A DNA stretch of 64,000 nt from an uncultured Fibrobacter sp. GTDB lineage: Bacteria > Fibrobacterota > Fibrobacteria > Fibrobacterales > Fibrobacteraceae. Shown here piece by piece: positions 15,750-64,000 of this stretch (within the stretch, counting starts at the first letter, position 1; each line of letters begins with the position of its first letter). The stretch spans positions 1,093 through 65,092 of the forward strand of contig NZ_CAMVDO010000018.1 of NCBI RefSeq assembly GCF_947166265.1, written 5' to 3'. Below the pieces are notes generated by a model, which searched no databases, was not told the origin of the DNA, and saw nothing but the letters and a program-made list of their open reading frames with translations. The position numbers and the translations under genes were made by a program.

Positions 15750-15866
15750 AGCGAAACCCGTTGTTATCTTTTCCGCCCTAAAAATAATAAAGCACCCCCA
15801 TGCATTGCAAGCCTTCAATGCGCAGAAAAACGAACTTTTTATGCCGCGTCGGGCCGAAAAATTTCT

Positions 15867-21083: not shown

Positions 21084-21101
21084 AGCAAAACCTTTTGGAA
21101 T

Positions 21102-25279: not shown

Positions 25280-26542
25280 TTAGTCTGAGTCCTTGACGCA
25301 ACGGACGGAGAAGCCGTTTTTCTTCCACTCGCCCCACAAAAGGGCGGAATCGTCGTCGTGTTGCAATCTCAAACAGTAGGATTTGTCGCTACCGTACACA
25401 CTAGAAGACCAGAAGAACGTACCAACGCCCTTTGACCTAAAAAATTCTCCGATGTACATAAAGCCTGCAGGGAGGGCTGAGAAACCAGAGGCATTCGTTC
25501 CCGACGTAGAAGTCGAATATTCCTTCCACCCGTCCGCAGTCTTCAACTCTACACTAGCACCAAGGTAACTCCAGTAAGTAGTTAGGTCTTCAACGCCGCT
25601 CGCTATTGGTTCTACCAGTTTCTTCCACTCTTCCTTTGTAGGCAAATGCCAGCCTTTGGGACAAACGCCCTGCGTACCTTCGTTGCCAATGTCGCAATTG
25701 TAGTGATAGCCACAATTGACCTTATTCATTGCAACTTCCCAGGTGTACAGGCGACCGTACCTGGAGCAGTTCGCAGCAAACTCTTCTTCCGTCAAAATTC
25801 TTTTACTGATTTCATCAAGGGCACCGTCACCATAGCAGCCGCTCCATGCATACCTACCCAAGCTGGACACATCGCCCGGATCGTAATTCAAGTTCTGGGC
25901 CATCCATATCTGATCTCCGATTTTAACCGTCTTATAGACTTGTCCATCGCGTTCATCGGTAAACTCGCCATAATTAATGTCCGGATTCAAGTAATCCCAG
26001 GCGGTTTTCATTTCTTCGCTAGACGAAGACACCTCCTTGCCCGCAGAGCTGCTTGACTTTACGTCATTTCCAGATGTATTCGAATTGCTGGACTTGGTCG
26101 ATGTTCCTGCCGAAGAAGGATTGTCCTTGCTGTCGCTGGAGTCGTCGGTCACTTCGGCGGGATCGTTGGACTTGCTGTCGCTGGACTTGTCGGTCACTTC
26201 GGCGGGATCGTTGGACTTGCTATCGCTGGACTTGGCACTCGATGAAGAGAAATCGCAGTCCATCTTCTCGATGAGAGTCCCGATGACCCAGCCGTTGTTA
26301 CCATCACACACAGCCATGTCATGGTATTCCGTCAGATAGGTGGCAACGCACTTCTGACTCTTGCCGCAGTCGTAATCCGACAGTTCCATGAATGTCTCGA
26401 CGGTGTCGGGAATTCCACCACGGTTCCCGCCACTACCATTATCACCCCCCGCTGACGAAGAATCGTCGCAGGCGGAAAGGGCGAAACCGAGCACCCCCGC
26501 AAGGGCGCAGACCGTAAACTTTTTCGCGAATGTGTTTTTCAT
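25280..26542 (-). CDS. FISUMP lipoprotein
   Basis: MKNTFAK leader, GGIPDT module, 15-aa internal duplication, FISUMP domain. Confidence 0.9.
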   Translation of the reverse strand: MKNTFAKKFTVCALAGVLGFALSACDDSSSAGGDNGSGGNRGGIPDTVETFMELSDYDCGKSQKCVATYLTEYHDMAVCDGNNGWVIGTLIEKMDCDFSSSSAKSSDSKSNDPAEVTDKSSDSKSNDPAEVTDDSSDSKDNPSSAGTSTKSSNSNTSGNDVKSSSSAGKEVSSSSEEMKTAWDYLNPDINYGEFTDERDGQVYKTVKIGDQIWMAQNLNYDPGDVSSLGRYAWSGCYGDGALDEISKRILTEEEFAANCSRYGRLYTWEVAMNKVNCGYHYNCDIGNEGTQGVCPKGWHLPTKEEWKKLVEPIASGVEDLTTYWSYLGASVELKTADGWKEYSTSTSGTNASGFSALPAGFMYIGEFFRSKGVGTFFWSSSVYGSDKSYCLRLQHDDDSALLWGEWKKNGFSVRCVKDSD

Positions 26543-26560
26543 GGGGAAACCTTTTGAGAT

Positions 26561-29580: not shown

Positions 29581-29598
29581 AGGGAAATCTTTTGAAAT

Positions 29599-33708: not shown

Positions 33709-34008
33709 TTACATGTCTCCCATCGACAATTCAACCTGGTCCGGATTTTCTTCGGGCTGCACCGGTTCTTCGGGGCTAACCGATTCGGGTTTCGCATACT
33801 GCGGCACCAAGGCGCCCGCTTCCAAAAGTTCACTGAACTCGCGGAGTCTCGGCAAGTCTTCGGGAATGCGGTTGATGCCGAAATACTTCATGAATTCCTG
33901 CGTCGTCACGTAGGTATAGGGGTTACCCACCGTATCGGCACGGCTACCCAGCGCAATAAAGCCCTTGTCAAGCAAGTTACGAATCGGGCCATCCACCGAC
34001 GACACACC
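33709..34008 (-). pseudogene. scpB: 3' fragment of scpB (second allele)
   Basis: 33716-33924 is identical to 9151-9359; 33925-34008 differs from 9360-9443 only at synonymous sites; no 5' part, no RBS. Confidence 0.93.
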
Positions 34009-34047
34009 AGGATTTCAATATAAAACCAACGATACAGGGCAATAAGG

Positions 34048-49489: not shown

Positions 49490-50290
49490 TTAATTCTTAG
49501 AGAATCTCGACAAGAATTGCGACAGGCGTTCATTTCCGGACTGGTTGAACACGAAATCAGGGGTTCCCTGTTCCACGATAACACCGCCATCCATAAAGAT
49601 GACCTTGTCCGCAACATCGCGGGCAAAAGCCATTTCATGCGTCACGATAACCATCGTCATCTTATCTTCGGCAAGTTTCTTGATAATCTTGAGCACTTCG
49701 CCGGTAAGCTCCGGATCCAGCGCAGAGGTCGGCTCGTCAAAGAAAAGAATCTTCGGGTTCATCGCCAAGGCACGAGCAATGGACACACGCTGCTGCTGGC
49801 CACCGCTAAGTTCACAAGGGTACGCCTTTTCCTTCCCTTCGAGTCCCATACGCTTGAGCAAGGAACGCCCCATAGCGCGAGCTTCTTCACGGGAGTCTCC
49901 CAACACACGCACCGGAGCCAGGCAAAGATTCTGAAGCACCGTCAGGTGCGGGAACAAGTTGAAGTTCTGAAACACGAGCCCCGTCGAAAGGCGGATTTCG
50001 CGCAGCACCTTCGCCGACGCATACTTGACGGGAGCACCCTTTTCACCAGGCAACACCATGTCTTTGCCGTCCACCTGCACCAGGCCACCGTCCACCGTTT
50101 CGAGCTGGGTAATACAGCGCAACAAAGTGCTCTTGCCGGAGCCACTCGGGCCAATAATCGAAAGCACCTCACCTGCATTCAAATCAAACGAAATATCCTT
50201 AAGCACATTATAGTCGCCAAAGGATTTCTTGACATGTTCCACTTTCAGGATCGGCGCAGTATCATTCACATTTTCCATTCCACGCCTCAC
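49490..50290 (-). CDS. Polar amino-acid ABC transporter ATP-binding protein (GlnQ family)
   Basis: GPSGSGKST, VFQNFNLFPH, LSGGQQQRV, FDEPTSALDPEL. Confidence 0.95.
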   Translation of the reverse strand: MRRGMENVNDTAPILKVEHVKKSFGDYNVLKDISFDLNAGEVLSIIGPSGSGKSTLLRCITQLETVDGGLVQVDGKDMVLPGEKGAPVKYASAKVLREIRLSTGLVFQNFNLFPHLTVLQNLCLAPVRVLGDSREEARAMGRSLLKRMGLEGKEKAYPCELSGGQQQRVSIARALAMNPKILFFDEPTSALDPELTGEVLKIIKKLAEDKMTMVIVTHEMAFARDVADKVIFMDGGVIVEQGTPDFVFNQSGNERLSQFLSRFSKN

Positions 50291-50946
50291 TTATAGTAGT
50301 TAAGCTTGCGTTCCAGATAAGCAAAAAGAACGCTCAGCAAAAGGTTTGCCACATAGTAGAATACGCCCGCCACGAACAGCGGGTAAATGCTCGCGTAGGC
50401 GGCCTGCTGTTTCTTGGCCAGCGCAAAAAGTTCCGTCACCGCAATCACCTGCGCAAGGGAAGTATCCTTTACCAGGGTGATGACCTCGTTCGCGCTCGCG
50501 GGCACCACACGCTTTACCACCTGCGGGAGGATAATGCGGAAAAACGTCTGCGAACGGGTCATGCCGAGCATGTAAGCAGCTTCGTACTGTCCCTTCGGAA
50601 CAGACTGGATTCCACCGCGGAAAATCTCAGCAAAGTACGCCGCATAGTTTATCGAGAACGCCACAATCACCGCCGGGAAACGGTCAAACGAAAATCCGAT
50701 TCCCGAATATTCGCTCAGGTAGTACGAACCAAAGTAAATCGCCACAATCTGCAACAAGAGCGGCGTTCCGCGCATCACCGAAATATAGAACGACACCGGG
50801 TAACGCACCACGCGCCACTTGCTCATCTTGAGTACCGCTATCAGGAGCCCAAGCGGTATCGAGAAAAGAAGCGTCAGCCCGAATATAGCGAGCGTCGTGC
50901 AAAATCCGCCCCAAAGAATCGGGAGTAAATTGCTCAAATCAGACAT
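50287..50946 (-). CDS. Polar amino-acid ABC transporter permease
   Basis: RGTPLLLQ, AAYFAEIFRGGIQSVPKGQYEAA..LG, KDTSL. Confidence 0.95.
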   Translation of the reverse strand: MSDLSNLLPILWGGFCTTLAIFGLTLLFSIPLGLLIAVLKMSKWRVVRYPVSFYISVMRGTPLLLQIVAIYFGSYYLSEYSGIGFSFDRFPAVIVAFSINYAAYFAEIFRGGIQSVPKGQYEAAYMLGMTRSQTFFRIILPQVVKRVVPASANEVITLVKDTSLAQVIAVTELFALAKKQQAAYASIYPLFVAGVFYYVANLLLSVLFAYLERKLNYYK

Positions 50947-50952
50947 ATTAAC

Positions 50953-51019
50953 TCAGAGGCGCACTGCGCCGACCTCAAACCTCAAAGCTCCCTCCCGTAG
51001 GGAGCGAGCCCCATACCTA
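50953..51019. repeat. REP-like element of the CTCARAG..CGACCT family
   Basis: ctcagaggcgcactgcgccgacctca...ctcccgtagggag...catacCTA; overlaps the TAG of the binding-protein gene. Confidence 0.55.
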
Positions 51020-51826
51020 TTTACCGAACCACTTGGCAAAGATTTCGTCGAACTTACCATCGGCCTTCATTGCAGCCAAAGTCGAGTTCACGGCGTCGCG
51101 CAGAGCCTGATCCTTCTTGCGGAAGCCGATTGCATAGACTTCATCCGACAGGCCTTCTTCAAGCACCACGTAATCCTTGGCATTCGTCACAATCCAGTAC
51201 TTGGCGACAATTTCGTCGAGGAACACGGCATCGACACCGCCCTTGTCCAAATCCATCAGGGCCGTCTGGTTATCGTCAAACGGGACGATATCCTTGGCAG
51301 CCTTACCCGCTTCGGAAGCATCGAGTAATTTCTGGGCGGTAGAGCCATTCTGCACGGCAATCTTCTTGCCCTTGAGCGATTCGAGGTTCGCAAGCGACTT
51401 GTCCTTCACGGTGAAAATCATACGGTTCTTGAGGTACGGGTCGCTCAAGTTCATCGCAGCAGCGCGTGCGCTGTCCACGCTCATACCGTTCCAGATACAG
51501 TCAATCTTGCCGGTATTCAATTCCTGCTCCTTCGCGTCCCAGGAAATCGGCTGCGTCTTAAGCTTTACGCCCAGGCGAGCGCAAACTTCAGTCGCAAGGT
51601 CGATATCGAAACCCACGATATTGTTGTCCTTGTCCCTAAAGCCCATCGGCGGGAAAGAATCGTCGAGGCCGAGCACGAACTCGCCTGCAGCCTTCACCTT
51701 GTTCAGGGATTCATCGGCCTGAACCTTGGCAGGTTCATTCTGAGCCGATTCATTTTTCGCCTCGTTACAGGCAGAAAGAAAAGCGGCACAAGCGACCGCA
51801 GCAAGCATCGTAAAGATTTTCTTCAT
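51017..51826 (-). CDS. Amino-acid ABC transporter substrate-binding lipoprotein
   Basis: Lipobox FLSAC; GLDDSFPPMGF, GFDIDLA, WNGMS, GFRK.D. Confidence 0.95.
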   Translation of the reverse strand: MKKIFTMLAAVACAAFLSACNEAKNESAQNEPAKVQADESLNKVKAAGEFVLGLDDSFPPMGFRDKDNNIVGFDIDLATEVCARLGVKLKTQPISWDAKEQELNTGKIDCIWNGMSVDSARAAAMNLSDPYLKNRMIFTVKDKSLANLESLKGKKIAVQNGSTAQKLLDASEAGKAAKDIVPFDDNQTALMDLDKGGVDAVFLDEIVAKYWIVTNAKDYVVLEEGLSDEVYAIGFRKKDQALRDAVNSTLAAMKADGKFDEIFAKWFGK

Positions 51827-51883
51827 AAGAAGCTCCTTTTTGCAGAGAATATAGAAAGATTTCTACCGCAATCCACTCATCCG

Positions 51884-52639
51884 CTAAAAATAATAGGACG
51901 CTCCAAACTGAATATTCCATAGCCTTGCAGGGGTCGCCATCCTGTACGTCTCTCCTTCCTTAATTTCAACGACGCCCGAATGTTCAATGCGGGTCATGTC
52001 GAATGTAAGTCTAAAGCCAACCCCTATCATGTGCCGGCGGAAAACGGGAAACGTGATACCCGCACCACCCAACACGGAATAACCGAGTTTTTCTTGTTCA
52101 AATTCATGCTCGTCGTCGCCATCCTTATCCGTTATCTCGCCATCGAAATTAAAGACAATCTGAGCGCCCGCTTCTAGATACATATAACGAACAGGTCTCA
52201 GGCGCATCAACAACGGAAACGAGGCGCTGTAAACATACAAATAGTATTCTTCGATATCGTAAGTACCATAACCTTTCCATTCTTGTCGCGAATATACCTG
52301 CTTGTTCAGCCGGTGTTCCACAAAACGCATATCGGCCTCAGCGGCAAGTCCAAAATAATCGTTCAACATATACCAGGCGCAAACACCGAATTCCATTCCG
52401 AAGCCGGTACGTAAAACCGAGTTTTCCCACACTTCATTGCTATAGGAATCGAAAACGCCTTTCACGCGCTTGTTATTCCAGGCATTCGACAGCAAAACGG
52501 ATAACCGGGGCCCCCAATAAAGCGATTTCGAAGAAGCTTCCGCCGGAGACCCTTCGACAGTCTGCGGCGTCGCAAAGGCATGTCCGGCCAAAGCAAACAT
52601 GAGCCCCAAAACAAAGAAATATCTTTTCACACTTTTCAT
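51884..52639 (-). CDS. Outer-membrane beta-barrel (porin-like) protein
   Basis: Signal peptide from MKSVKR; alternating hydrophobic strands; C-terminal IQFGASYYF. Confidence 0.65.
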   Translation of the reverse strand: MKSVKRYFFVLGLMFALAGHAFATPQTVEGSPAEASSKSLYWGPRLSVLLSNAWNNKRVKGVFDSYSNEVWENSVLRTGFGMEFGVCAWYMLNDYFGLAAEADMRFVEHRLNKQVYSRQEWKGYGTYDIEEYYLYVYSASFPLLMRLRPVRYMYLEAGAQIVFNFDGEITDKDGDDEHEFEQEKLGYSVLGGAGITFPVFRRHMIGVGFRLTFDMTRIEHSGVVEIKEGETYRMATPARLWNIQFGASYYF

Positions 52640-52735
52640 CTCGTCTCCTGCAATAAATATAATCATTTTGCGCAACAGGATACCCTTTTCAGTGAATTTA
52701 TACTAATTTTAGATTAAAGGGTCAAGGAATTTTAT

Positions 52736-53212
52736 ATGAGAAATCTGTTCAGGCGCATTACCGTATTCATTTGCTCGTTCTTCTGGAGCAATAACATAAG
52801 GCCATGCAACCCCATTCGTTTTATCCGAAAATACTGGGCTCAGCTGGCTCTTTCATCCATCGCCATACAGGCCATCGCCTGCGCCTACGGTGGTGAAGAC
52901 GGCTACGGCGGACAAATTTATCTGTGCAAGCCTCTATTTACCCTGCAAAAGAAATCCGACAAAAGCTACTCCAACTGTGAACAAGATATCGTCGACCAGC
53001 TGGTGATTGCAAAAGACATCCAAGACAATTTCAACAAGAGCTCCAGCGCCACTATCGAAGCCTGGAACGAGGCCATCGCCAACGCACGCGAAATCGCGGT
53101 AACCTGCGACATGAAGCACCTCAAGGCAGACACCACGCTCACAGGCTACATCTGCCCCGACGGGCGCACCCGCACCGTAGAAGAAGGCGAGCAGTACAAT
53201 TCATACCGCTAA
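52736..53212 (+). CDS. Hypothetical Cys-containing protein, possible lipoprotein
   Basis: 158-aa ORF with host codon usage; AIAC lipobox-like site after a long leader. Confidence 0.55.
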   Translation: MRNLFRRITVFICSFFWSNNIRPCNPIRFIRKYWAQLALSSIAIQAIACAYGGEDGYGGQIYLCKPLFTLQKKSDKSYSNCEQDIVDQLVIAKDIQDNFNKSSSATIEAWNEAIANAREIAVTCDMKHLKADTTLTGYICPDGRTRTVEEGEQYNSYR

Positions 53213-53347
53213 CGCGGCATTTTTCTTTGGGCGTTTCCCACTTCGTGGGTCGGGCTATACTCGCTTCGCTCACGAAGCCTTGCTCCCTAAAAAGTCAAAT
53301 AAAAAAGGCCCGCAAGTCTTCGCCCTACGGGTCACTATCCCTAACGC
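53212..53347. repeat. Composite palindromic element, copy B
   Basis: ACGCGGCATTTTTCTTTGGGCGTTTCCC..GGGTCGGGCTATA...GTCACTATCCCTAACGC. Confidence 0.7.
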
Positions 53348-53379
53348 AATTTTACAGCACCCATTAGGAAAAACCGATT

Positions 53380-56300
53380 CTAGTCCTTTACGCAGCGAAC
53401 AGAAAACCCACGATACTTGCTGTCGCGGGACAAGTCACCGTCGCCGAGATCCATATGGTATGCGTTGAAATTATTATAGTCCGTAGAACTCCAAAAGAAC
53501 GCGAAGTAGCCTCTGTAATCGAAATAGCTACCGTCCTTGTATCCAGCAGGCAAAGCGGAAAAGCCGAATGCATTTTCGTTAGTAGAGGCGTTCGTAGAGG
53601 ACCAACCACTTGTCGATTTGAGCATTCTTCCAGCCACTGATTTTCCTCCTACGGCAGAGAGTAGGCTTTCCCACTCATCTTTATTTGGTAAATGCCAGCC
53701 TTCGGGGCAAATGCCCTGAACCGGACCAGTCAGGCCGCAGTTTTTGCCATTACCGCAATTTAGCGGATTGTCCGCATCAGACGCAAGCTTCACCGAGTCA
53801 ATAGCTGCCGCCCAGGAATAAAGGCGACCATATTTTGTGCAATTATTCCAATCGTTATTATAGCACCAATTTCCTTTTCGCATACTCGGGTAGGTTGTAC
53901 TGTCTGAATAGTTTAGGTTTTCTGCCATCCAGGTTTGTGTCCCTATGGTCACGATTTTGTAGGTCTTGAGGTCCCTTTCATCAATCATTGATCCATATTC
54001 ACCAACAAACTCAATTTTTGCTTTCCACAAGCTATTATTACACAGATATAAAGAATCTTGCGTCGCAGATAGGTGTTTTCTTATTTCACTCCTCGTTGTG
54101 TAGCTGACACATCCTTTATTAAGTGATATTTCTAGAGAATTCGCAATTCTGAATGTATCTGCATCACACACATACTTATTTTCGGCAACAACTTCTCCAT
54201 CTACAATTGCACCATCTTTTGTACAAACTTTACCATAAGTATCAGAAGACAGAGTATCCGCAAGACCCCAATAGTAGTCATACTCCCACTCGCCTTGGTT
54301 ATAATAGCTTTTTCGCTTACATATGTAGCACGTATCACCAGATTTCCCTACCGTTTTATATCTTTTTTGGGTACATGCTCCAAGATCATTTTCAATTCGA
54401 CCTCGACTTGCGCGCCACACGTTATTTTCCCAAACATAATACTTATCAGAATTTACATTTCCTTTTTTCACGTCACCATCTTTTCCGGAGCTCCAGCCGT
54501 AAGTATCATACTCCTGTTCTGTAGATTCTACCCATCCTTTCGCTTTACATGTATAATAAATGGCTCCTGATTTAGCAACCACATTAATTCGACTTTTGAC
54601 ACATGCCCCTATATTATTTTCAATGTCGCTAGCAGATGCTCGCCATTTACCATCAACAGAGACATAATAATTGCCAAGTTCGCCCTTTCTAACTTCGCCA
54701 TCTGCCGAGGCAGACCAACCTAGAGTTTCATAAGCAAGCAAATCAACGCTGTTCCAAATTTTATTCCGGCAAACATAATACTCACTATTAAATGTACCCT
54801 TATCATTCTCCCGACTAGTCACACACACGCCCAAATTATACTCAATTTCATTAGCGCTTGCTCTCCATACTCCGTTTTCATAAACATAATGGTTAGTTGC
54901 AACAACGCTCCCTTCTTTCATTTCGCCTTCGGTTCCGGCTTTCCAACCATAGGTATCATACTCAATGGCAGTCGCTTCAGTCCAACTTCCAGATTTGCAG
55001 ATATAATACACATCGTTCAACTTTTCAACAACCCCTTTGTTTGAAGCGGTGCAATACCCAAGGCCATATTCTTCTGCGGTTATCTGTTTCCAGCTCTTAT
55101 TTTCGCAGATGTAATACTTGCCATTTTGCAAATGCTTTTCGCCGTCTTTCTTCGTCACACATGCGCCAAACTCATATTCCATATCGTCAGCTGCAGCACG
55201 CCATGCGCCATCTACATACACGTAGTGGTTTGTTGCAGTGACGGAGCCTTCTTTCACTTCGCCTTCGGTTCCAGCCTTCCAGCCGTAGGTATCATATTCA
55301 AGAGCAGTAGCAATTCTCCAGTTGTTCGATTTGCAGATGTAATAGGCAGTCACGGGCTTCGCAACTTCACCTTCGCGGCTTTCGACGCAGGCGCCGAGAA
55401 TTTCTTCAACGGCGTTTTTGGCTGCACGCCAGGCACCATTTTCATAGACATAGAACTTATCCTTGTTAACCTTACCCGCGCGAACTTCGCCATCATCACC
55501 CTTGCCGAACCCGTCGGTATCGTATTCAAGCACAGTCGCAGTACGCCAGCTATTGTCTTCGCAGATAAAGTACGTCGTATCAATTTTTGCAATCTCCCCT
55601 GTACGTTTTGAGGTGCAGAGTCCCAAGGCAGTCTCGTTCTTCGCGACAGTCCACTTGCCATCTTCAAACACATAATACGTAGCCGTCACATCGCCTTTCT
55701 TGACATCGCCTTCTTTACCGTCTTTCCACTGGTAGGTATCCTTTTCGATATCCGTTGCCTTCTGCCAGCTGGTTCCCTTACAGATGTAGTGGACATTGTA
55801 GTTCTTGCTCTTTGAGTTCTTGTTTTGCGCAATTACGCCGGACCTTGTCGAAGAGCAGCCGCCCAGTTCGTAGGCATTGTTCCAGTAAATAGTCAGGTAG
55901 TTTTCGTAGGCAGGAATGTCAAGAATGTTCCAACTCTTCACGTTCGCACGGATCGAACCGCCGTCAAAGCCTTCCGCCCAGTCCGCCATGTCCGCTTTCA
56001 TCTGCCCGTTGTTCCATTCTCCGTCCTCAGCCAAATCGCTCTTGAAACTGCCAATCGCATTTTGGATTTCGGTTTCAGTCCTGTCGCCAATGAAAAGCAA
56101 CGAAATCGCCATCAGGGTGGCGTTCTCCCCATAACTTTCGCTGGTAGAAGGCACGAATGTCTTCAAGTCCTCAGAATACTCCACCGAAGTGGCAAAACCG
56201 AGCGCCGTCATAATTTCAAAGTCGGCCTGTTTCTTGGCCGCAAAAACGCTATAGCCATCGTTGACAAGCTTTGCGGCGCGATCATATTCCAAGTGTGTAA

Positions 56301-57324
56301 GCAGATTGATATTCACTTCCGTTCGTTTGCTCAAATCGGTCAGCACACGGAGCGTCATGGAATCCTTGGAATATTCGCCACTGACTTCGTTGCGCCACAG
56401 TCCACGAACTTCAAGCACCGCGTAAGGATAAACAAGATTCACCTTTGGAATCACAAAGTCGCCCTTGTTGCTGGAAATTTCGTCATTGTACACGCGACCA
56501 GAATACACGAGGGAATCGTTGCGCAGAAGGACTTCGCGGAGTTGTAGCGGAGAGTTGAACTTGAACGGTCCCTTCTGTGCCGCACCAAGAATGGAAGCGT
56601 TCTTGACAATGTATCCATCGGCGGTCTCCGGATTCCACTTTTCCGTATCGCAGGCGAAGAAGACGGAGTCTTTCTTGACTAAGACACGTTGTTTTGCATT
56701 GCCTGCATTACACCTTGGCAAATCTTCCTTTGTCTTGACAATTTCGTAACCCAAATAGACGGTATCCTTAATCCAACCATTCGCCTTGCAAGTGTAATAG
56801 GTGGAATCGGCTAACACTAACGCGCGAAGCCCAAAATCAACGGAATCGCATGGGCCCAAAGCATTCTTTGTTTTCACCTCGATGTAAGTTGCCTTCGCAG
56901 AAGAACTGGAATTACAGTCACCGCAAAGCGGGTCATCGACAACGGAGCTGCTTGAGCCTGCGACGGGGTCCACAACATTAGAATCACCCGGCACCTCAAC
57001 GGAGTCTGCCCCAGACGAAATTGCAATGCTAGAACTTGATTCAGGTCGCGTCGTGATGTCAATCCAATCATTGTTCAAGCATAGGTACTCAATGGACTTG
57101 TCCAGTACGAGAACCGTGTCACCTTTGCGGTCAGTGGTACAGGAACCGAGGTCATAGATGGTCGGAACCTCGCGTGGAGGAATTTCAACAGCATTATCAT
57201 CACTACCGTCATCACCACAAGCGAACAGAACCGCACAGCTAGAGATTGCCGCACTTGCTTTCAGCAGGTTCACAATGACACTTTTGCTAGATGCGAATGT
57301 ATTTGCAATTCTATTCCAAACCAT
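53380..57324 (-). CDS. Large FISUMP lipoprotein with G.AQ.GPF domain and six ~75-aa Cys/Trp repeats
   Basis: Start MVWN with GGAGG RBS; lipobox LFAC; repeats EYDTYGW..G..GEV..G.V...YV...G.WRA...LG.C...YYIC...W; C-terminal FISUMP. Confidence 0.88.
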   Translation of the reverse strand: MVWNRIANTFASSKSVIVNLLKASAAISSCAVLFACGDDGSDDNAVEIPPREVPTIYDLGSCTTDRKGDTVLVLDKSIEYLCLNNDWIDITTRPESSSSIAISSGADSVEVPGDSNVVDPVAGSSSSVVDDPLCGDCNSSSSAKATYIEVKTKNALGPCDSVDFGLRALVLADSTYYTCKANGWIKDTVYLGYEIVKTKEDLPRCNAGNAKQRVLVKKDSVFFACDTEKWNPETADGYIVKNASILGAAQKGPFKFNSPLQLREVLLRNDSLVYSGRVYNDEISSNKGDFVIPKVNLVYPYAVLEVRGLWRNEVSGEYSKDSMTLRVLTDLSKRTEVNINLLTHLEYDRAAKLVNDGYSVFAAKKQADFEIMTALGFATSVEYSEDLKTFVPSTSESYGENATLMAISLLFIGDRTETEIQNAIGSFKSDLAEDGEWNNGQMKADMADWAEGFDGGSIRANVKSWNILDIPAYENYLTIYWNNAYELGGCSSTRSGVIAQNKNSKSKNYNVHYICKGTSWQKATDIEKDTYQWKDGKEGDVKKGDVTATYYVFEDGKWTVAKNETALGLCTSKRTGEIAKIDTTYFICEDNSWRTATVLEYDTDGFGKGDDGEVRAGKVNKDKFYVYENGAWRAAKNAVEEILGACVESREGEVAKPVTAYYICKSNNWRIATALEYDTYGWKAGTEGEVKEGSVTATNHYVYVDGAWRAAADDMEYEFGACVTKKDGEKHLQNGKYYICENKSWKQITAEEYGLGYCTASNKGVVEKLNDVYYICKSGSWTEATAIEYDTYGWKAGTEGEMKEGSVVATNHYVYENGVWRASANEIEYNLGVCVTSRENDKGTFNSEYYVCRNKIWNSVDLLAYETLGWSASADGEVRKGELGNYYVSVDGKWRASASDIENNIGACVKSRINVVAKSGAIYYTCKAKGWVESTEQEYDTYGWSSGKDGDVKKGNVNSDKYYVWENNVWRASRGRIENDLGACTQKRYKTVGKSGDTCYICKRKSYYNQGEWEYDYYWGLADTLSSDTYGKVCTKDGAIVDGEVVAENKYVCDADTFRIANSLEISLNKGCVSYTTRSEIRKHLSATQDSLYLCNNSLWKAKIEFVGEYGSMIDERDLKTYKIVTIGTQTWMAENLNYSDSTTYPSMRKGNWCYNNDWNNCTKYGRLYSWAAAIDSVKLASDADNPLNCGNGKNCGLTGPVQGICPEGWHLPNKDEWESLLSAVGGKSVAGRMLKSTSGWSSTNASTNENAFGFSALPAGYKDGSYFDYRGYFAFFWSSTDYNNFNAYHMDLGDGDLSRDSKYRGFSVRCVKD

Positions 57325-57431
57325 GAAAGCCTCCATCGGCAAATACCCTAGGAAAATTTGCACTTAAAAAATAAATTTATAACTCGGAATAAAACGAGCG
57401 TAAGGGAAATATGTTCCTTGTTTTTAACCAC

Positions 57432-57461
57432 AAAGGGACGCATCGCTGCAGTCCACTTTTT
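57432..57461. terminator. Terminator-like hairpin, homologous to 57606-57635
   Basis: GGACGCA-tcgc-TGCAGTCC-ACTTTTT. Confidence 0.45.
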
Positions 57462-57605
57462 GTAATACAGGTTATTTCTTTTCAGAGATTACCTGAAAAT
57501 CCTTATAGATTGCGGAATCCGCTATCCACTTCAACAAAGCCCTACAACCGCGATAAATGAACAAGCCTTTTTCATTCCAGTCTCCTGTTTTGTTAGAAAG
57601 ATAAG

Positions 57606-57635
57606 AAAAAGGGCCGCATCGCTGCGGTCCCTTTT
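57606..57635. terminator. Bidirectional terminator downstream of the displaced sdhB allele
   Basis: AAAAAGGGCCGCA-tcgc-TGCGGTCCCTTTT. Confidence 0.8.
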
Positions 57636-57652
57636 ATAATGCTTTGGTTCCT

Positions 57653-57745
57653 ATCGGGGCTACGCCCCTCCAGGATGACACAGGAAAGGTCGGTGAGCCT
57701 GCCGAACCGACTATTCAGTTCACTTCGGCAAGCTCAGTGAACTTG
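57653..57745. repeat. REP-like cluster
   Basis: CCTATCGGGGCTACGCCCCTCCAGGATGAC; GGTGAGCCTGCCGAACC; GTTCACTTCGGCAAGCTCAGTGAAC. Confidence 0.6.
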
Positions 57746-58506
57746 CTAGTCCTTACCATAAACCTTTTCGGCGTAGGTCACGGTAGCGCCGAGGTATTCG
57801 CGGTTCATCTTGGCGATGTAATCCACGGTGATACCCTTCGGGCATGCGGCCTGGCATTCGTAAAGGTTCGTGCAGTTGCCGAAGCCTTCCTTGTCCATCT
57901 GGGCGACCATGGCGAGCACACGCTTCTTCGCCTCGACCCTATGACGACCGTTCGCGCTAGACGCATAAAAAAAACTCTAATTAGCGCTCACTCTCGCCAA
58001 CACGACTCGTCAATACGAGTCGCTTTTGGCTCACAGCCTGCGGCAAGAAGCTGAGGTGAGACACCTTCGCAGAAACGAAGAGCATCGCGGAAGCGTTCTT
58101 ACAGGCAGCCACGCAAGCACCGCAACCGATACAAGCGGCAGCGTCAAAGGCGCGGTCGGCATCAGCCTTGGGAACCGGGATCACAGATGCTTCAGGAGCG
58201 GCACCGGTGTTCACGGACACGAAACCACCGGCAGCGATGATGCGGTCGAAAGCGGTACGGTCCACGGCGCAGTCACGGATAACCGGGAATGCGGCGGCGC
58301 GCCACGGTTCGATCACGATGGTGTCGCCATCCTTGAACTTCCTTTTTCCCCTTCCTTGCCCTGCTTCATCTGTTCTTCGTTCACAATGTCGAGCATTTCC
58401 AAGAAGGACATGTCCGGAGAAACATCGTTGATCTTGACAGTTTCGAACTGTCCCTTGGTCTTGGCATCCTTCTGACGCCAAATCTTCAAAGTCAAATTCA
58501 GTCCGC
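57746..58506 (-). pseudogene. sdhB: Near-full-length second allele of sdhB/frdB, inactivated
   Basis: Colinear with 60688-61460; lacks ATG; 115 bp (Cys cluster) replaced by 9 bp at 58341-58349; 98-bp insertion at 57939-58036. Confidence 0.95.
57939..58036. mobile_element. 98-bp hairpin-containing insertion (MITE/REP-like) in the sdhB pseudogene
   Basis: Absent from intact sdhB, where TTGC occupies the site; internal hairpin CGACTCGT-caat-ACGAGTCG; ends CTATGA / TCACAG. Confidence 0.55.
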
Positions 58507-58514
58507 CGCCGCTG

Positions 58515-58662
58515 ACGCGGCATTTTCTTTTGTGCGTTCCCCACTGGCATGGGTCGGGCTATATTCTGGGGGCAATCGGCTGCGCTTTCGCTTGCCGCTC
58601 ACCTCCCAGAACCAAGCCTCGCTACGCGAGTCTTGTCCCCAAGGGGTCACTATCCATAACGC
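58515..58662. repeat. Composite palindromic element, copy C
   Basis: ACGCGGCATTTTCTTTTGTGCGTTCCCC..GGGTCGGGCTATA...GTCACTATCCATAACGC; abuts the 5' break of the sdhB pseudogene. Confidence 0.7.
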
Positions 58663-58681
58663 AGATGCAAATGTAACACAG

Positions 58682-59173
58682 CTATTTCAAATTCTCAACG
58701 AACGAATTCAAAAGAGCTTCGCTGATATGTCTTTTGGACAACCGAAGGATTTCGGCGCAAGCCAAGGCTTCCTCTTTATTCAGCAAACCGTTCTCATTGG
58801 CAGCAATCAAGATGCCTATCGTTCCGGTAATACGGAGTTTCATCGTCGTGGCGACGTGCCTTGCACGAACTTCATCCACAATCAAAAGGTCACTCTTGTT
58901 TTCGTCGGAATAAACGATAGCTTCACTTTCGCCAAGATCCAAGCCAGTTACACGCATCAACATGCAAACTGCTTGGCTATTGCCAACAGACACTTTTTTG
59001 AAAAACTCACAGGATTTCACCTGTTCAGCTTCGTCCCAAAATTCCTGATTTGAAGTTAATTCTTCATAAACAGCCTCTGGAAGAAGGACTTCGCCAAACA
59101 ATTTTCCAAGAATGTCAAGACGATTAATTTTAAGGAAAGAAATTATCGGAGTTGCATCAGATACGACAATCAT
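58682..59173 (-). CDS. PIN-domain (DUF3368-like) putative toxin
   Basis: MIVVSDATPII, LPEAVYEEL, LDLGESEAI, LLIVDE..AR, ITGTIGIL. Confidence 0.88.
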   Translation of the reverse strand: MIVVSDATPIISFLKINRLDILGKLFGEVLLPEAVYEELTSNQEFWDEAEQVKSCEFFKKVSVGNSQAVCMLMRVTGLDLGESEAIVYSDENKSDLLIVDEVRARHVATTMKLRITGTIGILIAANENGLLNKEEALACAEILRLSKRHISEALLNSFVENLK

Positions 59174-59175
59174 CC

Positions 59176-59448
59176 TTACCTCTTGGAAAGGAGTTCCATA
59201 ACGTTGGCAGCATCCTGCTCGGCTTCTTCCCAACTCTGATCGATATAGGGAATACCTTCGCTCCCATAAAGTTCAATTAGTTCCCATTTGGAGATACCCA
59301 AAATTTCGGCAGCACGACCATGGGAAATGGTCTCGTTCTTGATAAATGGATACAACAGCAACGCATTGCGGCGGAGTTCGTCGCTCTTGTTATCGCATAC
59401 CATGAGGTCTGCAATATCTTCTGGAATGTCCATTGTTACTGTCGGCAT
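59176..59448 (-). CDS. UPF0175-family putative antitoxin
   Basis: 90 aa; ISHGRAAEILGISKWELIELY..GIPY; 2 bp upstream of the PIN gene. Confidence 0.88.
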   Translation of the reverse strand: MPTVTMDIPEDIADLMVCDNKSDELRRNALLLYPFIKNETISHGRAAEILGISKWELIELYGSEGIPYIDQSWEEAEQDAANVMELLSKR

Positions 59449-59479
59449 GGAAAACCTCCACTACCAATATATATTTTTA

Positions 59480-59644
59480 TCAAGAAAAAGGCAACCCCGC
59501 CAGTTTAAGCAACGCCGTTAGATGCAGTTCCTTGAGAATTTCTTCTGCAGAGTAACGCTTGGCGGACACTACAGTTTGTTGTTCCGCCTCGTGCAACTTG
59601 GCATAAATTTCTTCTTCAGATTGGTGTTGGGCATCTGTTTGCAT
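59480..59644 (-). other. 54-codon ORF resembling the C-terminal half of a Phd/YefM-type antitoxin (probable remnant)
   Basis: Manual translation MQTDAQHQSEEEIYAKLHEAEQQTVVSAKRYSAEEILKELHL... Confidence 0.35.
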
Positions 59645-59680
59645 ACGTTTGCGGCAACTAAAAAATTTTCATAAGGAGTC

Positions 59681-60361
59681 TCATTCTTTTATGCATCTAA
59701 CAGCCTGCCAAAAACTTGTATTGCCAACTTCTGCAATTCGTTCAATACTCAATGATCTCATAAGAATCGAATTTTTCATAGTAGTTGACGAATACACCGC
59801 TCCCATATGAAGACGATCACAATCCGTTATATTTAGACAAAAACCAGATGGAAGAGCAGCAAATCCACAATCATTAGAACCAACGCCCCTATTTTCATTC
59901 CATAGACCATTGATTTTGAGTTGAGATGCGGCCTCTTCTTTATCACTGCTCATATTATTCAAAAGTTTATTAAAATCTTCCTCACTTGGCATACGCCATC
60001 CTTTGGGGCAAATCGCAGGAATTATGTCAACATCAAAAGTTTCATTTTGATTTCCATTTAAACGCAAGGAATACAACCTACCATAAATTTCACAATTTTC
60101 AGGATTGTTGTCATAGCACATGCTATACTCTACATTATAATTCAAATTTTTTGCCATCCAAACCTGGTCTCCAATGGTAGTATACTCATACACCTGACCA
60201 TCACGAGCATCTACAAATGTCCCTCGATTGGGTTCACCGTATAAATTTGTACCGGTATCTGGGCACACTTCGCTAGCACTCCATTTATCATCCGCATCCG
60301 TCGTGCAGGCGATCAACACAAACTGAAAGACAATCACAATTAGTAGTATATTTCTTTTCAC
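59681..60361 (-). CDS. Small FISUMP lipoprotein
   Basis: GTG start, lipobox LIAC, DARDGQVY.YTTIGDQVWMAKNLNY, CPKGWRMP, AVRCIKE; AT-rich. Confidence 0.88.
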   Translation of the reverse strand: MKRNILLIVIVFQFVLIACTTDADDKWSASEVCPDTGTNLYGEPNRGTFVDARDGQVYEYTTIGDQVWMAKNLNYNVEYSMCYDNNPENCEIYGRLYSLRLNGNQNETFDVDIIPAICPKGWRMPSEEDFNKLLNNMSSDKEEAASQLKINGLWNENRGVGSNDCGFAALPSGFCLNITDCDRLHMGAVYSSTTMKNSILMRSLSIERIAEVGNTSFWQAVRCIKE

Positions 60362-60454
60362 TTTATCAACCTTAATTAAAAATTCATTCTCGCAAAATAT
60401 AGTTTTTCATTCATACTTTGATATATCTTCTGAGATTCACCTCCCCCACCATAA

Positions 60455-60488
60455 AAAAAGAGAACTGCCGTTAAGCAGTCCTCTTTTT
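60455..60488. terminator. Terminator downstream of sdhCAB
   Basis: AAAAAGAG-A-ACTGC-cgttaa-GCAGT-C-CTCTTTTT. Confidence 0.7.
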
Positions 60489-60496
60489 AATGCTTT

Positions 60497-60687
60497 AGAT
60501 TGCTTCGTCGCCTTACGGCTCCTCGCAATGACGTGTTAATCGGCGACGCTCACCCCTCAAAGGGAGCGGAGCGACCGACCTCACACCTCATACCTATTAG
60601 TCGTTCGCCAAGTTGCTACGCAACTTGCCGCAAGACTCGCGGCGCCTTGGTCATGAGCAAGCGAGCTTGCTCGCGACGCTCGGCTTG
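60497..60687. repeat. REP-like cluster downstream of sdhB
   Basis: AGATTGCTTC..TCGCAATGAC (60497-60532), CTCAAAG..CGACCTCA..CCTCATACCT, AAGTTGC-tac-GCAACTT, GAGCAAGCGAGCTTGCTC. Confidence 0.7.
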
Positions 60688-61464
60688 CTAGTCCTTGCCA
60701 TAAACCTTTTCGGCGTAGGTCACGGTGGCGCCGAGGTATTCGCGGTTCATCTTGGCGATGTAATCCACGGTGATACCCTTCGGGCATGCGGCCTGGCATT
60801 CGTAAAGGTTCGTGCAGTTGCCGAAGCCTTCCTTGTCCATCTGGGCGACCATGGCCAAGACGCGCTTCTTTGCCTCGACCTTGCCCTGCGGCAAGAAGCT
60901 GAGGTGAGAAACCTTCGCAGAAACGAAGAGCATAGCGGATGCGTTCTTACAGGCGGCCACGCAGGCACCGCAACCAATGCAAGCGGCAGCGTCGAAGGCG
61001 CGGTCGGCATCAGCCTTGGGAACCGGAATCGTGGAAGCTTCAGGAGCGGCACCGGTGTTGACGGAAACGAAACCACCGGCAGCGATGATGCGGTCGAAAG
61101 CGGTACGGTCCACGGCGCAGTCACGGATAACCGGGAATGCGGCGGCGCGCCACGGTTCGATCACGATGGTGTCGCCATCCTTGAACTTGCGCATGTGAAG
61201 CTGGCAAGTGGTGGTCGCATGGTCAGGACCGTGCGGCATACCGTTGATGACGAGAGAGCACATGCCACAGATACCTTCGCGGCAGTCGTGGTCGAAGGCG
61301 AAGCCTTCCTTGCCCTGCTTCATCTGTTCTTCGTTCACGATGTCCAGCATTTCCAGGAAGGACATGTCCGGAGAAACATCGTTGATCTTGACAGTTTCGA
61401 ACTGTCCCTTGGTCTTGGCATCCTTCTGACGCCAAATCTTCAAAGTCAAATTCAGTCCGCTCAT
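60688..61464 (-). CDS. sdhB: Succinate dehydrogenase/fumarate reductase Fe-S subunit
   Basis: [12 protein letters not shown] (2Fe-2S), [24 protein letters not shown]. Confidence 0.96.
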
Positions 61465-63377
61465 TATTTGTAGCTCCTAGTAGCGAGGTGGACGTTATCA
61501 AAGGTAAGAGGTTCCTTGGAAAGTTCCGGTGCGACACCGTCGCCCTTGTATTCCCAGGCACCCACGTAGCAGAAGTTCTCGTCGTCGCGCTTGGCTTCGC
61601 CTTCCGGAGTCTGGCTTTCTTCGCGGAAGTGGCCGCCGCAAGATTCCTTGCGGTGCAGGGCGTCGAGAGTGAGGACTTCGGCGAATTCGAGGAAGTCAGC
61701 CACGCGGCCGGCACGTTCGAGGTTCTGGTTGAAGGAACCTTCGGAGCCGAGCACGTTGACGTTTTCCCAGAATTCGGCACGGAGGGCCGGAATCTTCTCG
61801 AGAGCGGTCTTCAGGCCGGCCTCGTTACGGGCCATGCCCACGTATTCCCACATGATGTTACCGAGTTCACGATGGATATCGTTAACAGTGCGGTGACCCT
61901 TGATGGAGAGGAGCTTGTGGATGCGTTCTTCGGTCTGCTTCTTGCAGTCTTCGAACGCGGCATCGGATTCGGAAACCTTCTCGAGCTTGGTGCCCGCGAA
62001 GTAGCCGCCGATGGTGAACGGAATGACGAAGTAACCGTCGGAGAGGCCCTGCATCAAAGCAGATGCGCCGAGGCGGTTTGCACCGTGGTCGGAGAAGTTG
62101 GCTTCACCGAGAACGAAGCAGCCCGGAATCGTGGACATCAGATCGTAGTCCACCCAGAGGCCGCCCATGGTGTAGTGGATGGCCGGGAAGATACGCATCG
62201 GGACCTTGTACGGGTCTTCGTCGGTAATCTTTTCGTACATCTGGAAGAGGTTGCCGTACTTGGCAGACACACCTGCAACGCCCATGCGCTGGATAGCGTC
62301 GGCGAAGTCGAGGTACACAGCCTGCTTGGTGTTACCCACGCCGAGACCTGCGTCGCAGACCTGCTTGGCGTTACGGGATGCCACGTCACGCGGAACGAGG
62401 TTACCGAAGCTCGGGTACTTTTCTTCGAGGTAGTAGTAACGTTCTTCTTCCGGAATCTGGTCCGGGCTGCGGGTGTCGCCAGCCTTGCGCGGAACCCAGA
62501 TACGGCCGTCGTTACGGAGAGATTCGCTCATCAAGGTGAGCTTGGACTGCAGGTCGCCGTGGCGAGGAATGCAAGTCGGGTGAATCTGCGTGTAGCAGGG
62601 GTTAGCGAACAGAGCGCCGCGCTTGTAGGCACGGAAAGCAGCCGTCACGTTAGAGCCCTGGGCGTTGGTAGAAAGGTAGTAGACGTTACCGTAACCACCG
62701 GTGCAAAGGCACACAGCGTCACCCACGTGGCTTTCAAGTTCGCCAGTGATGAGGTTACGGACGATGATACCGCGAGCCTTGCCGTCGATCACGACGAGGT
62801 CCATCATTTCGCGGCGGGGGAACATCTTCACCTTACCGGCGGCAACCTGGCGCATGAGAGCCTGGTAGGCACCGAGCAAGAGCTGCTGACCCGTCTGACC
62901 GCGAGCGTAGAACGTACGGGAAACCTGCGTACCACCGAAGGAACGGTTGTCGAGGAGGCCACCGTATTCACGACCGAACGGAACGCCCTGAGCGACGCAC
63001 TGGTCGATGATGAGGTTGGAGTTTTCAGCCAAGCGGTGCACGTTGGCTTCGCGAGCGCGGAAGTCACCGCCCTTCACGGTATCGTAGAACAGACGGTAAA
63101 CGGAGTCGCCGTCGTTCTTGTAGTTCTTGGCAGCGTTGATACCACCCTGGGCAGCAATGGAGTGTGCGCGACGGGGGCTATCCTGGATGCAGAAAGACTT
63201 GACGTTGTAACCAAGTTCGGCGAGGGATGCAGCGGCAGAAGCACCGGCAAGGCCAGTACCCACCACGATCACCGTGAACTTACGCTTGTTGGCGGGGTTC
63301 ACGAGCTTGAGTTCGAACTTATGCTTGGTCCACTTTTCTTCGATGGAACCACCGGGGATTTTAGAATCAAGAATCAT
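61464..63377 (-). CDS. sdhA: Succinate dehydrogenase/fumarate reductase flavoprotein subunit
   Basis: [60 protein letters not shown]. Confidence 0.97.
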
Positions 63378-63388
63378 TAGTGGTCTCC

Positions 63389-64000
63389 TTAAATTTCAGC
63401 GTTAAAAGAAACTTCTACTTCGCCAACAGAAGGAATCACGAAGGCGGTCTTGGCGGCAGCCTTTTCCTTCTGCTGCTGTTCGTACTGCGGCTGGAGGCTA
63501 CGAGACTTTTCAATCAGAGCCTGCGTACCCGGCTGGTTGCCGAGGTAGAAAGCGGCAACAGCGGTGATACCGAAGCCGAGGGCAACGATAACGCTGTAAG
63601 CGATACCGGCGATATCGATAATCGGGGTCCACTTCTGGTGAGCGATACCCATGGTCTGGAAAGCAGAAGAAATAGCGTGGAAGAGGTGCATACCGATCAC
63701 GAACATGCTAACCACGTAGAAAGCAGCCCAAGCCGGGTTTGCAAACATCTGGATGGTGGTGAGCCACATGTCGCGGACGATTTCGCCCTTGTCGTTCATG
63801 TAGAGGTAGTGTTCGCCGAACTTGAGCATCATGAGGTGCTGCACGAGGAACACGAGAATAAAGAGACCGGACCAGATCATGGTGAAGGTTGCGAAAGTCT
63901 TCTTACCCTTGCGAGCATTGATTTCGTAATCGATGCCACCGCGAGCCTTCTTGTTTTCAATCTTCAGCGTAACGGCGAGGAAGATATGAATAGCGAAGGC
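63389..64000 (-). CDS. sdhC: Succinate dehydrogenase/fumarate reductase cytochrome b subunit (5' end beyond window)
   Basis: Frame stays open to 64000 ([19 protein letters not shown]...TMIWSG..FLVQHL...[15 protein letters not shown]). Confidence 0.92.

Follow-up and report, generated by a model that had tools for sequence, protein, structure and literature searches.

Duplicated sdhB Copies Bracket a Putative Toxin–Antitoxin and FISUMP Cassette Ending in a Structured Element in an Uncultured Fibrobacter

Introduction

Accessory genes usually enter bacterial chromosomes by way of integrases, transposases, or plain replacement between conserved flanks. Restriction–modification gene complexes are reportedly also inserted with long target duplication, as Nobusato et al. 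are said to have described in 2000. Here, a 64,000-nucleotide stretch of DNA from an uncultured Fibrobacter sp. (contig NZ_CAMVDO010000018.1, positions 1,093 to 65,092; referred to as the window) was analyzed with a focus on the 3'-end of the sdhCAB operon. At this locus an intact copy of sdhB (I) and a displaced, broken copy (P) bracket a cassette with a FISUMP gene and a putative toxin–antitoxin pair, and the cassette ends in a multi-hairpin cargo-end element (CEE).

The insertion of restriction–modification complexes with long target duplication was described by Furuta, Abe and Kobayashi (2010, PMC2853133). In the published case the direct repeats vary from approximately 30 to 420 bp, other mobility genes are absent, competent species are favored, and a cycle of invasion, amplification, and release was proposed. 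A further comparison is provided by homology-facilitated illegitimate recombination and by the sequential displacement of type VI secretion system (T6SS) effector–immunity modules in Vibrio cholerae (PMC3240628, PMC5361080).

Set against the long-target-duplication insertions, the sdhB insert has colinear empty sites in related strains, repeats longer than 30 bp, and no mobility gene. The cargo in the window is a toxin–antitoxin pair with a FISUMP gene and not a restriction–modification system; such a system occupies the homologous position in comparison locus L088. The comparison loci L001–L004 and L081–L090 are from genomes and metagenomes and were fetched for the same SdhB protein. The window had previously been read from its letters and open reading frames (ORFs), and this earlier analysis is referred to as the sequence-only reading.

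Results

The coordinates of the features are collected in Table 1. P has lost the ATG start codon and is homologous to I from nucleotide 5 of sdhB to 4 nt beyond the stop codon. Nucleotides 5–777 of the gene, with the 4 additional nucleotides, are thus present in two copies at 96% identity. Repeat finding, self-BLAST, and alignment gave three colinear blocks of 197, 304, and 157 nt. These blocks pair 57742–57938 with 60684–60880, 58037–58340 with 60885–61188, and 58350–58506 with 61304–61460, with identities of 96, 95, and 98%, respectively. Between the second and third blocks, nucleotides ~161–275 of sdhB (115 nt, with the 2Fe-2S cysteine motif) have been exchanged in P for the 9-nt filler GGAAAAAGG at 58341–58349. 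Between the first and second blocks, a 99-nt insertion stands in place of the 5 nt GCAAG (sdhB nucleotides 581–585), for a net gain of 94 nt. The start-less colinear copy with a deletion and an insertion, as described in the sequence-only reading, is borne out.

A codon-by-codon count over the 215 codons shared by I and P gave 25 nucleotide differences in 23 codons, which reproduces exactly the earlier manual count. Twenty-two of the 23 codons are synonymous and the remaining one, with two nucleotides changed, converts Thr145 to Val. The differences are third-codon-position changes of all kinds, and three identical tracts are longer than 100 bp.

The SdhB protein is identical in L001–L003 and L081–L090, and 99% identical in L004. 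Six of these loci (L003, L004, L082, L084, L086, and L090) have an empty site, in which sdhB is followed after ~200–600 nt by the SBP gene. The sites that are filled elsewhere contain PIN_3/RelB, PemK, UPF0175/DUF3368, type II and type III restriction–modification systems, DUF4417, M78/HTH pairs, and FISUMP genes. The flank behind P is 98.6% identical to the sdhB flank of L082 and 97% identical to that of L086. I is trailed by a 95-nt mini-element and then by a different flank haplotype, which is also found in L083, in L117, and behind the second copy of L001; a terminator-like hairpin (60464–60479) is also located downstream of the mini-element. The broken downstream copy P is the resident copy in its native setting, with I and the cargo upstream of it, because P carries the native flank and terminator and I carries a flank of another type. 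In this respect the sequence-only reading, which had P as the displaced allele, is upheld. The sdhB locus appears to be an insertion with long target duplication and not a fresh allele displacement, since the flank and terminator of P are the native ones and the site is empty in strains whose SdhB is identical. A Fibrobacter-like sdh operon with a 90% identical SdhB was also encountered in L005, a bin labeled Alistipes onderdonkii, and is probably bin contamination.

The junction between the cargo and P, in which ...AAAATGCCGCGTCAGCGGCG is followed directly by GCGGACTG..., is common to the window, L001, L083, L088, L127, L145, and L167, and thus to at least seven independent assemblies. The 99-nt insertion is present in six of the seven; L127 ends 82 nt past the junction. 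The cargo between the two copies is readable in the window, L083, L001, and L088, the other three being short contigs. FISUMP and the UPF0175/DUF3368 pair make up the cargo of the window. In L083 the same cargo is accompanied by an sdhB 3'-fragment, PIN_3/RelB, and two ORFs. Two membrane-protein ORFs are found in L001, and a HindVP-type restriction–modification system is found in L088. Restriction–modification genes also occur elsewhere in the islands of L001, L081, and L087. The junction and one mini-insertion have been inherited by many strains while the cargo has turned over. The distal breakpoint is the 3'-end of the CEE, and the proximal breakpoint is at sdhB nucleotide 5 at the window locus and variable across loci.

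The 115-nt deletion is absent from P of L001 and L088, and other P copies have other internal deletions. P of L088 contains a second insertion of the same mini-element family (Ins-A), which is 102 nt in length. The window resembles L083 less the segment between the two CEEs of L083. The 187-nt sdhB fragment of L083 was considered as an independent displacement and rejected: it shares private mutations with P of L083 and begins at the end of the 99-nt insertion, and it derives from a pseudo-copy. The displaced sdhB of L001 (12645–13499) is an open frame of 284 amino acids with a TTG start. Its mini-insertion is 98 nt in length and adds 93 nt net, which preserves the frame and introduces no stop codon, with the copies of other strains being frameshifted; this is probably due to chance.

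Fifteen working sdhB alleles (window, L001–L004, and L081–L090) have 103 polymorphic sites in 777 nt, with patches that are shared mosaically. Fourteen of the 15 encode an identical SdhB, the exception being L004. The pattern indicates very strong purifying selection together with frequent homologous recombination of sdhB in the Fibrobacter population. P copies from different strains are 34–43 nt apart, each P differs from the I of its own genome by 26–39 nt, and the P copies do not cluster; P of the window is nearest to I of the window. At 23 of the 27 nonconsensus sites of this P, the same nucleotide also occurs in working alleles. The 4 private nucleotides fall in the Thr/Val codon and at two synonymous sites. 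Private changes in the other P copies are a neutral-looking mix of synonymous and nonsynonymous changes. The 99-nt insertion, which has no recombination partner, differs by 1–3% between strains.

The low dN/dS of P is due to ongoing recombination or gene conversion with working alleles, and not to one displaced allele that diverged elsewhere, because the variants of P are standing polymorphisms and the P copies form no clade. The three long identical tracts are consistent with such exchange. As P is a mosaic that exchanges with working alleles, an allele tree would be uninformative.

CEE-A lies within the 175 nt that separate the putative toxin gene from P, and a 25-nt A-rich tail with a small hairpin (58507–58531) stands between CEE-A and P. 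The element starts with GCGTTAGGGATAGTGACCCC and ends with TATAGCCCGACCCAC-loop-GTGGGGAACGC. An alignment of 19 diverse copies contains the closing stem GCGUU/AACGC and several hairpins. Compensatory changes are found in 13 of the 35 pairs (12 of 16 in the long bulged hairpin). In this alignment 97.7% of the cells are paired, compared with 37–54% when the partners are slid, and the observed values were reached in none of 500 shuffles. When 640 kb of Fibrobacter loci were searched with the covariance model for the CEE (R2), only seven copies were detected; every one is in the island downstream of sdhB, and two are in the window. The CEE and Ins-A gave no match to Rfam (E ≤ 10 in 57900–58700 and E ≤ 1 in 50000–64000), except for two chance hits elsewhere. 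In L117 the CEE subtype and the downstream context that follow a cassette 99.7% identical to that of the window are both different, which places cassette exchange at the conserved 5'-end of the CEE.

Other assignments for the CEE and its tail were rejected. For a viral or plasmid origin there was no viral contig and no plasmid match. The tail is not a relic of sdhA; the 10-nt match belongs to the small hairpin tail, which is also found at CEE-B. A guide-RNA scaffold of the TnpB right-end type is disfavored: in several loci the first 40 nt of the intact copy are the same as those of the displaced copy, and the sequences flanking the junctions have no motif in common.

The 99-nt insertion in P belongs to the Ins-A family of mini-elements (75–102 nt), which have the form CYGTGAGCC...GGCGAGAG...GAACGGTC..ATAGG and fold as a three-way junction with covarying stems. 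The covariance model for Ins-A (R1) gave 22 matches in CEE loci, two of them weak (E of 0.03 and 0.39). All but one of the 22 are found in the first 1 kb downstream of a CEE, although such zones account for just 9.6% of the sequence searched (binomial p ~ 1e-20, with several of the loci being homologous to one another). Fibrobacter DNA that is not linked to a CEE (433 kb) gave no match, and the insertion was accordingly rejected as a common genomic miniature inverted-repeat transposable element (MITE). In the four cases with a readable target, Ins-A replaces exactly 5 nt (GCAAG, GTAAG, TGATG, or AGATG) and shifts the frame. Judged as a MITE or as an IS200-IS605 element, Ins-A has no target duplication, and no Y1 transposase is present in these loci. 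A second family, Ins-B, has the form G[CT]AAG[GC]CGAG..hairpin..CCGAGCC and also interrupts displaced copies. Two Ins-A elements occur in one displaced copy of ntpK in L158. In L148, L151, and L174 such a pair appears to have recombined to a hybrid element, with the gene segment between the two deleted.

Metagenome contigs were scanned with the exact pattern of the CEE terminal hairpin; 104 stretches were returned and 80 loci were read. Approximately 28 distinct contexts were found downstream of the CEE. After a short A-rich tail, the CEE is typically followed by a housekeeping gene that begins mid-gene. The truncated targets are sdhB, sdhA, ileS, thrS (two breakpoints), pyruvate:ferredoxin oxidoreductase, V-ATPase subunit I (ntpI, three breakpoints), V-ATPase subunit K, carbamoyl-phosphate synthase, purC, glucokinase, and others. 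Among the loci for which sufficient sequence could be read, at least 15 have a direct-repeat copy of the downstream sequence, located 1.3–11 kb upstream of the CEE with 88–99.9% identity. The arrangement of gene copy, cargo, and second copy, proposed in the sequence-only reading as a general one, is thus found in at least 15 further loci, including those of ileS, thrS, pyruvate:ferredoxin oxidoreductase, and V-ATPase.

Among the proteins encoded within 5 kb upstream of the CEEs, seven DNA methylases, DpnII, Eco47II, three HNH proteins, PIN, NERD, and four FISUMP proteins predominate; a single DDE transposase is also present. In a census of 5 kb upstream and 2.5 kb downstream of 83 CEE copies, no integrase, relaxase, Rep, or reverse transcriptase was found. 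A Y1 (IS200-like) transposase was rejected as the mobilizer, as the Y1 protein of L092 has no homologue in CEE loci.

Locus L150 (13153 nt) contains a tandem of a 6438-nt unit at 99.95% identity. The unit consists of a 3'-part of thrS with Ins-B, an HNH endonuclease, three genes including an S8 protease, and the CEE. Behind the tandem, a CEE variant that has a compensatory hairpin is joined to a third thrS fragment at an earlier breakpoint. The locus looked fully periodic and was considered as a circular intermediate, but the unique ends and the third thrS copy identify it as a chromosomal tandem duplication. The long repeats therefore do recombine.

Table 1. Features of the Window around the Duplicated sdhB Gene
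Feature	Coordinates	Strand	Support and remarks
sdhA/frdA flavoprotein gene	61464..63377	-	637-aa ORF; FAD_binding_2 and Succ_DH_flav_C, both for homologous loci and in the census of window proteins
Intact sdhB/frdB iron–sulfur subunit gene (I), 258 aa	60688..61464	-	Fer2_3 (1.6e-22) and Fer4 domains
Ins-B type mini-element, GCAAGCCGAGCG...CTAATAGG	60593..60687	-	directly 3' of the intact sdhB stop; same place in L083 and L135
FISUMP-domain protein, 226 aa, lipoprotein-like N-terminus (..LIAC), cargo gene 1	59681..60361	-	PF09603 3.9e-19; TIGR02145 2e-41
54-aa ORF	59480..59644	-	"antitoxin remnant" of the sequence-only reading
UPF0175-family putative antitoxin, 90 aa, cargo gene 2	59176..59448	-	PF03683 7.7e-10, 38.8 bits (cutoff 27.9)
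DUF3368 protein, 163 aa, putative PIN-like toxin partner, cargo gene 3	58682..59173	-	PF11848 21.7 bits, below the Pfam cutoff
CEE-A, 131-nt multi-hairpin element	58532..58662	-	closing stem GCGUU/AACGC; R2 145.5 bits, E 3e-27
Displaced sdhB copy (P), without start codon	57746..58506	-	sdhB nucleotide 5 to stop codon
Ins-A mini-element inside P, 99 nt, three-way junction	57938..58036	-	R1 122 bits; also in L001, L083, L088, L145, and L167
Native sdhB 3'-flank with intrinsic terminator, behind P	57595..57745	-	terminator stem at 57614–57627
FISUMP protein, 1327 aa, next cargo unit of the island	53380..57363	-	PF09603 4.6e-37; homologues in L083 and L089
CEE-B, closes the 1327-aa FISUMP unit	53229..53347	-	R2 55.9 bits, E 9e-9; same context in L105, L112, and L135
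SBP_bac_3 gene of ABC transporter, far border of variable region	51017..51826	-	

The stop codon of sdhA and the start codon of sdhB overlap by 1 nt. The first cargo gene scored 142.6 bits against TIGR02145, for which the cutoff is 41.65. No Pfam or NCBIfam family was matched by the 54-aa ORF. Remnants of the UPF0175 gene are also present in L001, L081, and L087. The homologue of the DUF3368 protein in L083 is recorded as DUF3368. No relative of this protein was found in the PDB and nothing was returned by an exact-protein look-up; an AF2 single-sequence model has a pLDDT of 49.8, which is too poor to read a PIN fold. The UPF0175 gene and its putative PIN-like partner are regarded here as a candidate type II toxin–antitoxin pair, a pairing described in the literature. 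Neither the cargo nor the 25 best-ranked families of the 44 window proteins include an integrase or a transposase, in agreement with the earlier description of a cargo that lacks an integrase. A relaxase, Rep, or reverse transcriptase is likewise missing from those families.

The 1327-aa FISUMP gene contains internal direct repeats of ~190 nt at a spacing of 336–450 nt (54368–55679). Downstream of CEE-B is a 158-aa ORF on the opposite strand, followed by a 263-aa ORF with a weak, sub-threshold PorT/SprT-like match. In the window this gene pair (51884–53212) is situated upstream of the ABC-transporter operon. Its 158-aa member, the only one of the two with a DNA match, is located downstream of the transporter operon in L084 (13692–14947) and L086. 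The difference in position means that either the transporter operon or the gene pair has been relocated between strains.

A second island in the window interrupts the native gene order rapA-proB-scpB-mutS. An island of ~28 kb (about 9920–38167), consisting mostly of FISUMP genes, lies between the proB side and scpB-mutS. A 294-nt scpB fragment at 33716–34009 is 97% identical to the 3'-end of the gene and ends 5 nt short of the stop codon. The fragment is upstream of the cargo, and the full copy beside mutS (9144–9851) is the working one; together they bracket ~24 kb rich in FISUMP genes. In L094 and L100, a full scpB is found among FISUMP genes with no mutS behind it. The sequence-only reading had assigned the same architecture to scpB and sdhB. 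The duplication of a housekeeping gene around FISUMP cargo stands for scpB, but the repeat is a 3'-fragment only, the arrangement is mirrored, and the CEE is missing.

A 90-nt segment occurs five times at 78–100% identity (12039–12128, 15674–15763, 21008–21097, 26467–26556, and 29505–29594) and is apparently the start and signal-peptide region of FISUMP genes. Many further repeats of 140–430 nt join the FISUMP genes at 10–31 kb. These repeats indicate that local duplication or gene conversion has been frequent among the FISUMP paralogues.

Discussion

The best explanation for the sdhB locus, to which we assign a probability of roughly 0.55, is an insertion with long target duplication at the 3'-end of the sdhCAB operon by a cassette that ends in the CEE. 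The duplication would result from one homologous exchange within the sdh operon and one non-homologous join at a CEE-defined DNA end. The event may have been homology-facilitated illegitimate recombination or, equally, the integration by a single crossover of a circle made up of part of sdhB, the cargo, and the CEE. Later cassette swaps would proceed by homologous recombination, for which sdhB, the pseudo-copy, and the conserved ends of the CEE would provide the arms. A crossover upstream of the deletion or of the 99-nt insertion would leave only a broken sdhB, and most loop-outs would thus be lethal. Viable loss of the cassette would be restricted to crossovers in the last 197 nt, which alone would rebuild an intact sdhB. 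The lesions of P and an addictive cargo (toxin–antitoxin or restriction–modification) would, judging from the sequence, retain the cassette. A stabilizing role of the toxin–antitoxin pair, itself hypothetical, cannot be a general one; the cargo of other strains consists of membrane proteins or a restriction–modification system.

Several points weigh against an insertion of this kind. Neither an enzyme nor a DNA end has come to light, and the constant position of the CEE is the sole ground for placing the join there. The target-gene breakpoints have no shared motif or microhomology, and the intact copies are not recoded there. The covariance-model search gave no CEE at the scpB island, so that the CEE is not required for every such event. 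A homology-anchored transfer leaves the first arrival at a new housekeeping gene unexplained. A purely intrachromosomal duplication ending at the CEE would yield the same structure. In addition, the sequences used for comparison come mostly from metagenome assemblies.

The CEE, Ins-A, and Ins-B could tentatively be viewed as the cis hardware of an undescribed, integrase-free cassette system that places defense, toxin, and surface-protein genes beside essential ones, duplicates part of the target, and breaks the displaced copy, whereby most homologous loop-outs would be lethal and the cargo would be trapped. That a dedicated CEE-specific system is at work is doubtful. Its enzyme might be a recombinase that acts on folded single strands in the manner of integrons, a rolling-circle enzyme or HUH nickase, or a reverse transcriptase that primes at the CEE. 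In such a system the CEE would serve as the cis site and the mini-elements would be non-autonomous relatives, with the duplicated target arising as a by-product. The conserved pairing ends with variable, covarying hairpins are consistent with this, as is the presence of the CEE at the junction in all of the ~28 contexts. Serial CEE-ended cassettes are found in L083, L150, L160, L174, and the window (two), and cargo is swapped exactly at the 5'-end of the CEE. The Ins-A elements share a GAACG..ATAGG 3'-end and cluster downstream of the CEE, which is itself followed by A-rich tails. Nevertheless, no recombinase, relaxase, Rep, or reverse transcriptase recurs around the 83 CEE copies, the Y1 transposase of L092 is without a counterpart in these loci, the attC signature is not present, and there is no common target motif. 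The nearest cargo gene may be on either strand, which argues against a simple 3'-untranslated-region or RNA model. Also unlikely is a tandem duplication within the chromosome that arose from a replication template switch or from unequal exchange, with the right end set by the CEE hairpins and with subsequent turnover of one cargo copy. Horizontal transfer would not be needed for the duplication itself. The 6438-nt doubling in L150 speaks for such a duplication, although it may be unequal crossing-over between pre-existing repeats. The order I–cargo 1–CEE, P–cargo 2–CEE in the window fits duplication with cassette replacement, and local duplications abound in its FISUMP regions. However, the only matches between cargo 1 and cargo 2 other than the CEE are short ones in their FISUMP domains, I and P have different 3'-flank haplotypes, and the spread to many different genes would be left unexplained.

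The sequence-only reading amounts to a recent displacement of the resident allele by an incoming sdhB allele that brought the cassette along, with the toxin–antitoxin pair guarding against loop-out. The synonymous-only divergence, the different flank haplotypes, and the addictive pair in the cargo would all suit such an event. It is nonetheless quite improbable: the event is old, since the junction and the 99-nt insertion are shared among assemblies (the junction by seven) and the readable cargo differs in the four in which it can be read. Moreover, P is a mosaic of population polymorphisms, and cassettes that lack a toxin–antitoxin pair exist. An assembly artifact, in which the sdhB alleles of two strains were merged in one contig, might be considered with so many metagenome assemblies among the comparison sequences. 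This can be practically dismissed, as the junction, the deletion, and the insertion of P occur in no working allele and the architecture is present in at least seven independent assemblies.

Cassettes for defense and surface proteins are located within duplications of highly conserved genes and are bounded by a structured element with no database match. If the CEE directs the event, it would constitute a new route of gene acquisition in important fiber degraders of the rumen and gut. It would also explain the diversification of their FISUMP and defense repertoires, and it would supply a mechanism for the "insertion with long target duplication" that has been unexplained for 25 years. If the CEE is the cis site of a dedicated system, the cassettes would be a new kind of mobile cassette. 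On a conservative reading, a dead gene copy is kept allele-like by gene conversion, which is a caveat for dN/dS inference on duplicated genes.

Other known classes of element were compared with the Fibrobacter loci. An integrase island with att repeats was rejected, as no recombinase was found and the junction positions vary within the same gene. A diversity-generating retroelement was rejected on the grounds that the differences between I and P are not adenine-specific, being of all kinds and at third codon positions, and that no reverse transcriptase was found. Islands that target dusA or tRNA/tmRNA genes are similar in that the target is kept functional by a replacement part and a displaced fragment is left at the other end. 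Those islands rely on a tyrosine integrase and on an att core that is short and fixed, whereas the Fibrobacter breakpoints vary within a gene (two in thrS and three in ntpI).

Integron cassettes and their attC sites, including attC clusters without an integrase, share with the Fibrobacter cassettes promoter-less defense or accessory genes, a structured end site with conserved pairing ends around a variable center, a serial order, and exchange at the site. The attC site (RYYYAAC...GTTRRRY) is a single bulged hairpin, whereas the CEE has several hairpins and a GTT...AAC polarity. One strand of the CEE reads 5' GCGTTAGGG ... GGGGAACGC 3' and the other reads 5' GCGTTCCCC ... CCCTAACGC 3', which is opposite in polarity to attC. 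Neither IntI nor Phage_integrase turned up in the CEE neighborhoods (5 kb upstream, 2.5 kb downstream) or in the 25 best-ranked window families. Unlike integron cassettes, which are tied to one attI platform, the Fibrobacter cassettes are tied to duplicated targets at many loci.

Homology-facilitated illegitimate recombination and the T6SS modules of V. cholerae resemble the Fibrobacter cassettes in having one homologous anchor in a conserved gene and one non-homologous join, with older remnants pushed downstream and arrays of fragments. In those cases the non-homologous end is not known to be tied to a specific structured element, and they are not known to involve duplication of a whole essential gene. 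For Fibrobacter the mechanism is one deduced from the arrangement of the loci.

The insertions with long target duplication are similar to the sdhB locus in that the unit is absent in a relative, a single-copy target is present as a long and variable repeat, and no integrase or transposase is found. Tandem amplification by the repeats is also common to both, and restriction–modification systems are frequent cargo at the related Fibrobacter loci. The Fibrobacter repeats differ in length, taking in a whole gene (772 nt) or exceeding 1 kb. The Fibrobacter targets, in the identifiable contexts, are mostly conserved housekeeping genes, the CEE is present at one junction, and mini-insertions are found in the displaced copy. 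What is new relative to the known systems is the duplication of essential genes on the scale of a whole gene, the CEE as boundary, the mini-elements in displaced copies, and the gene conversion that keeps a dead copy allele-like.

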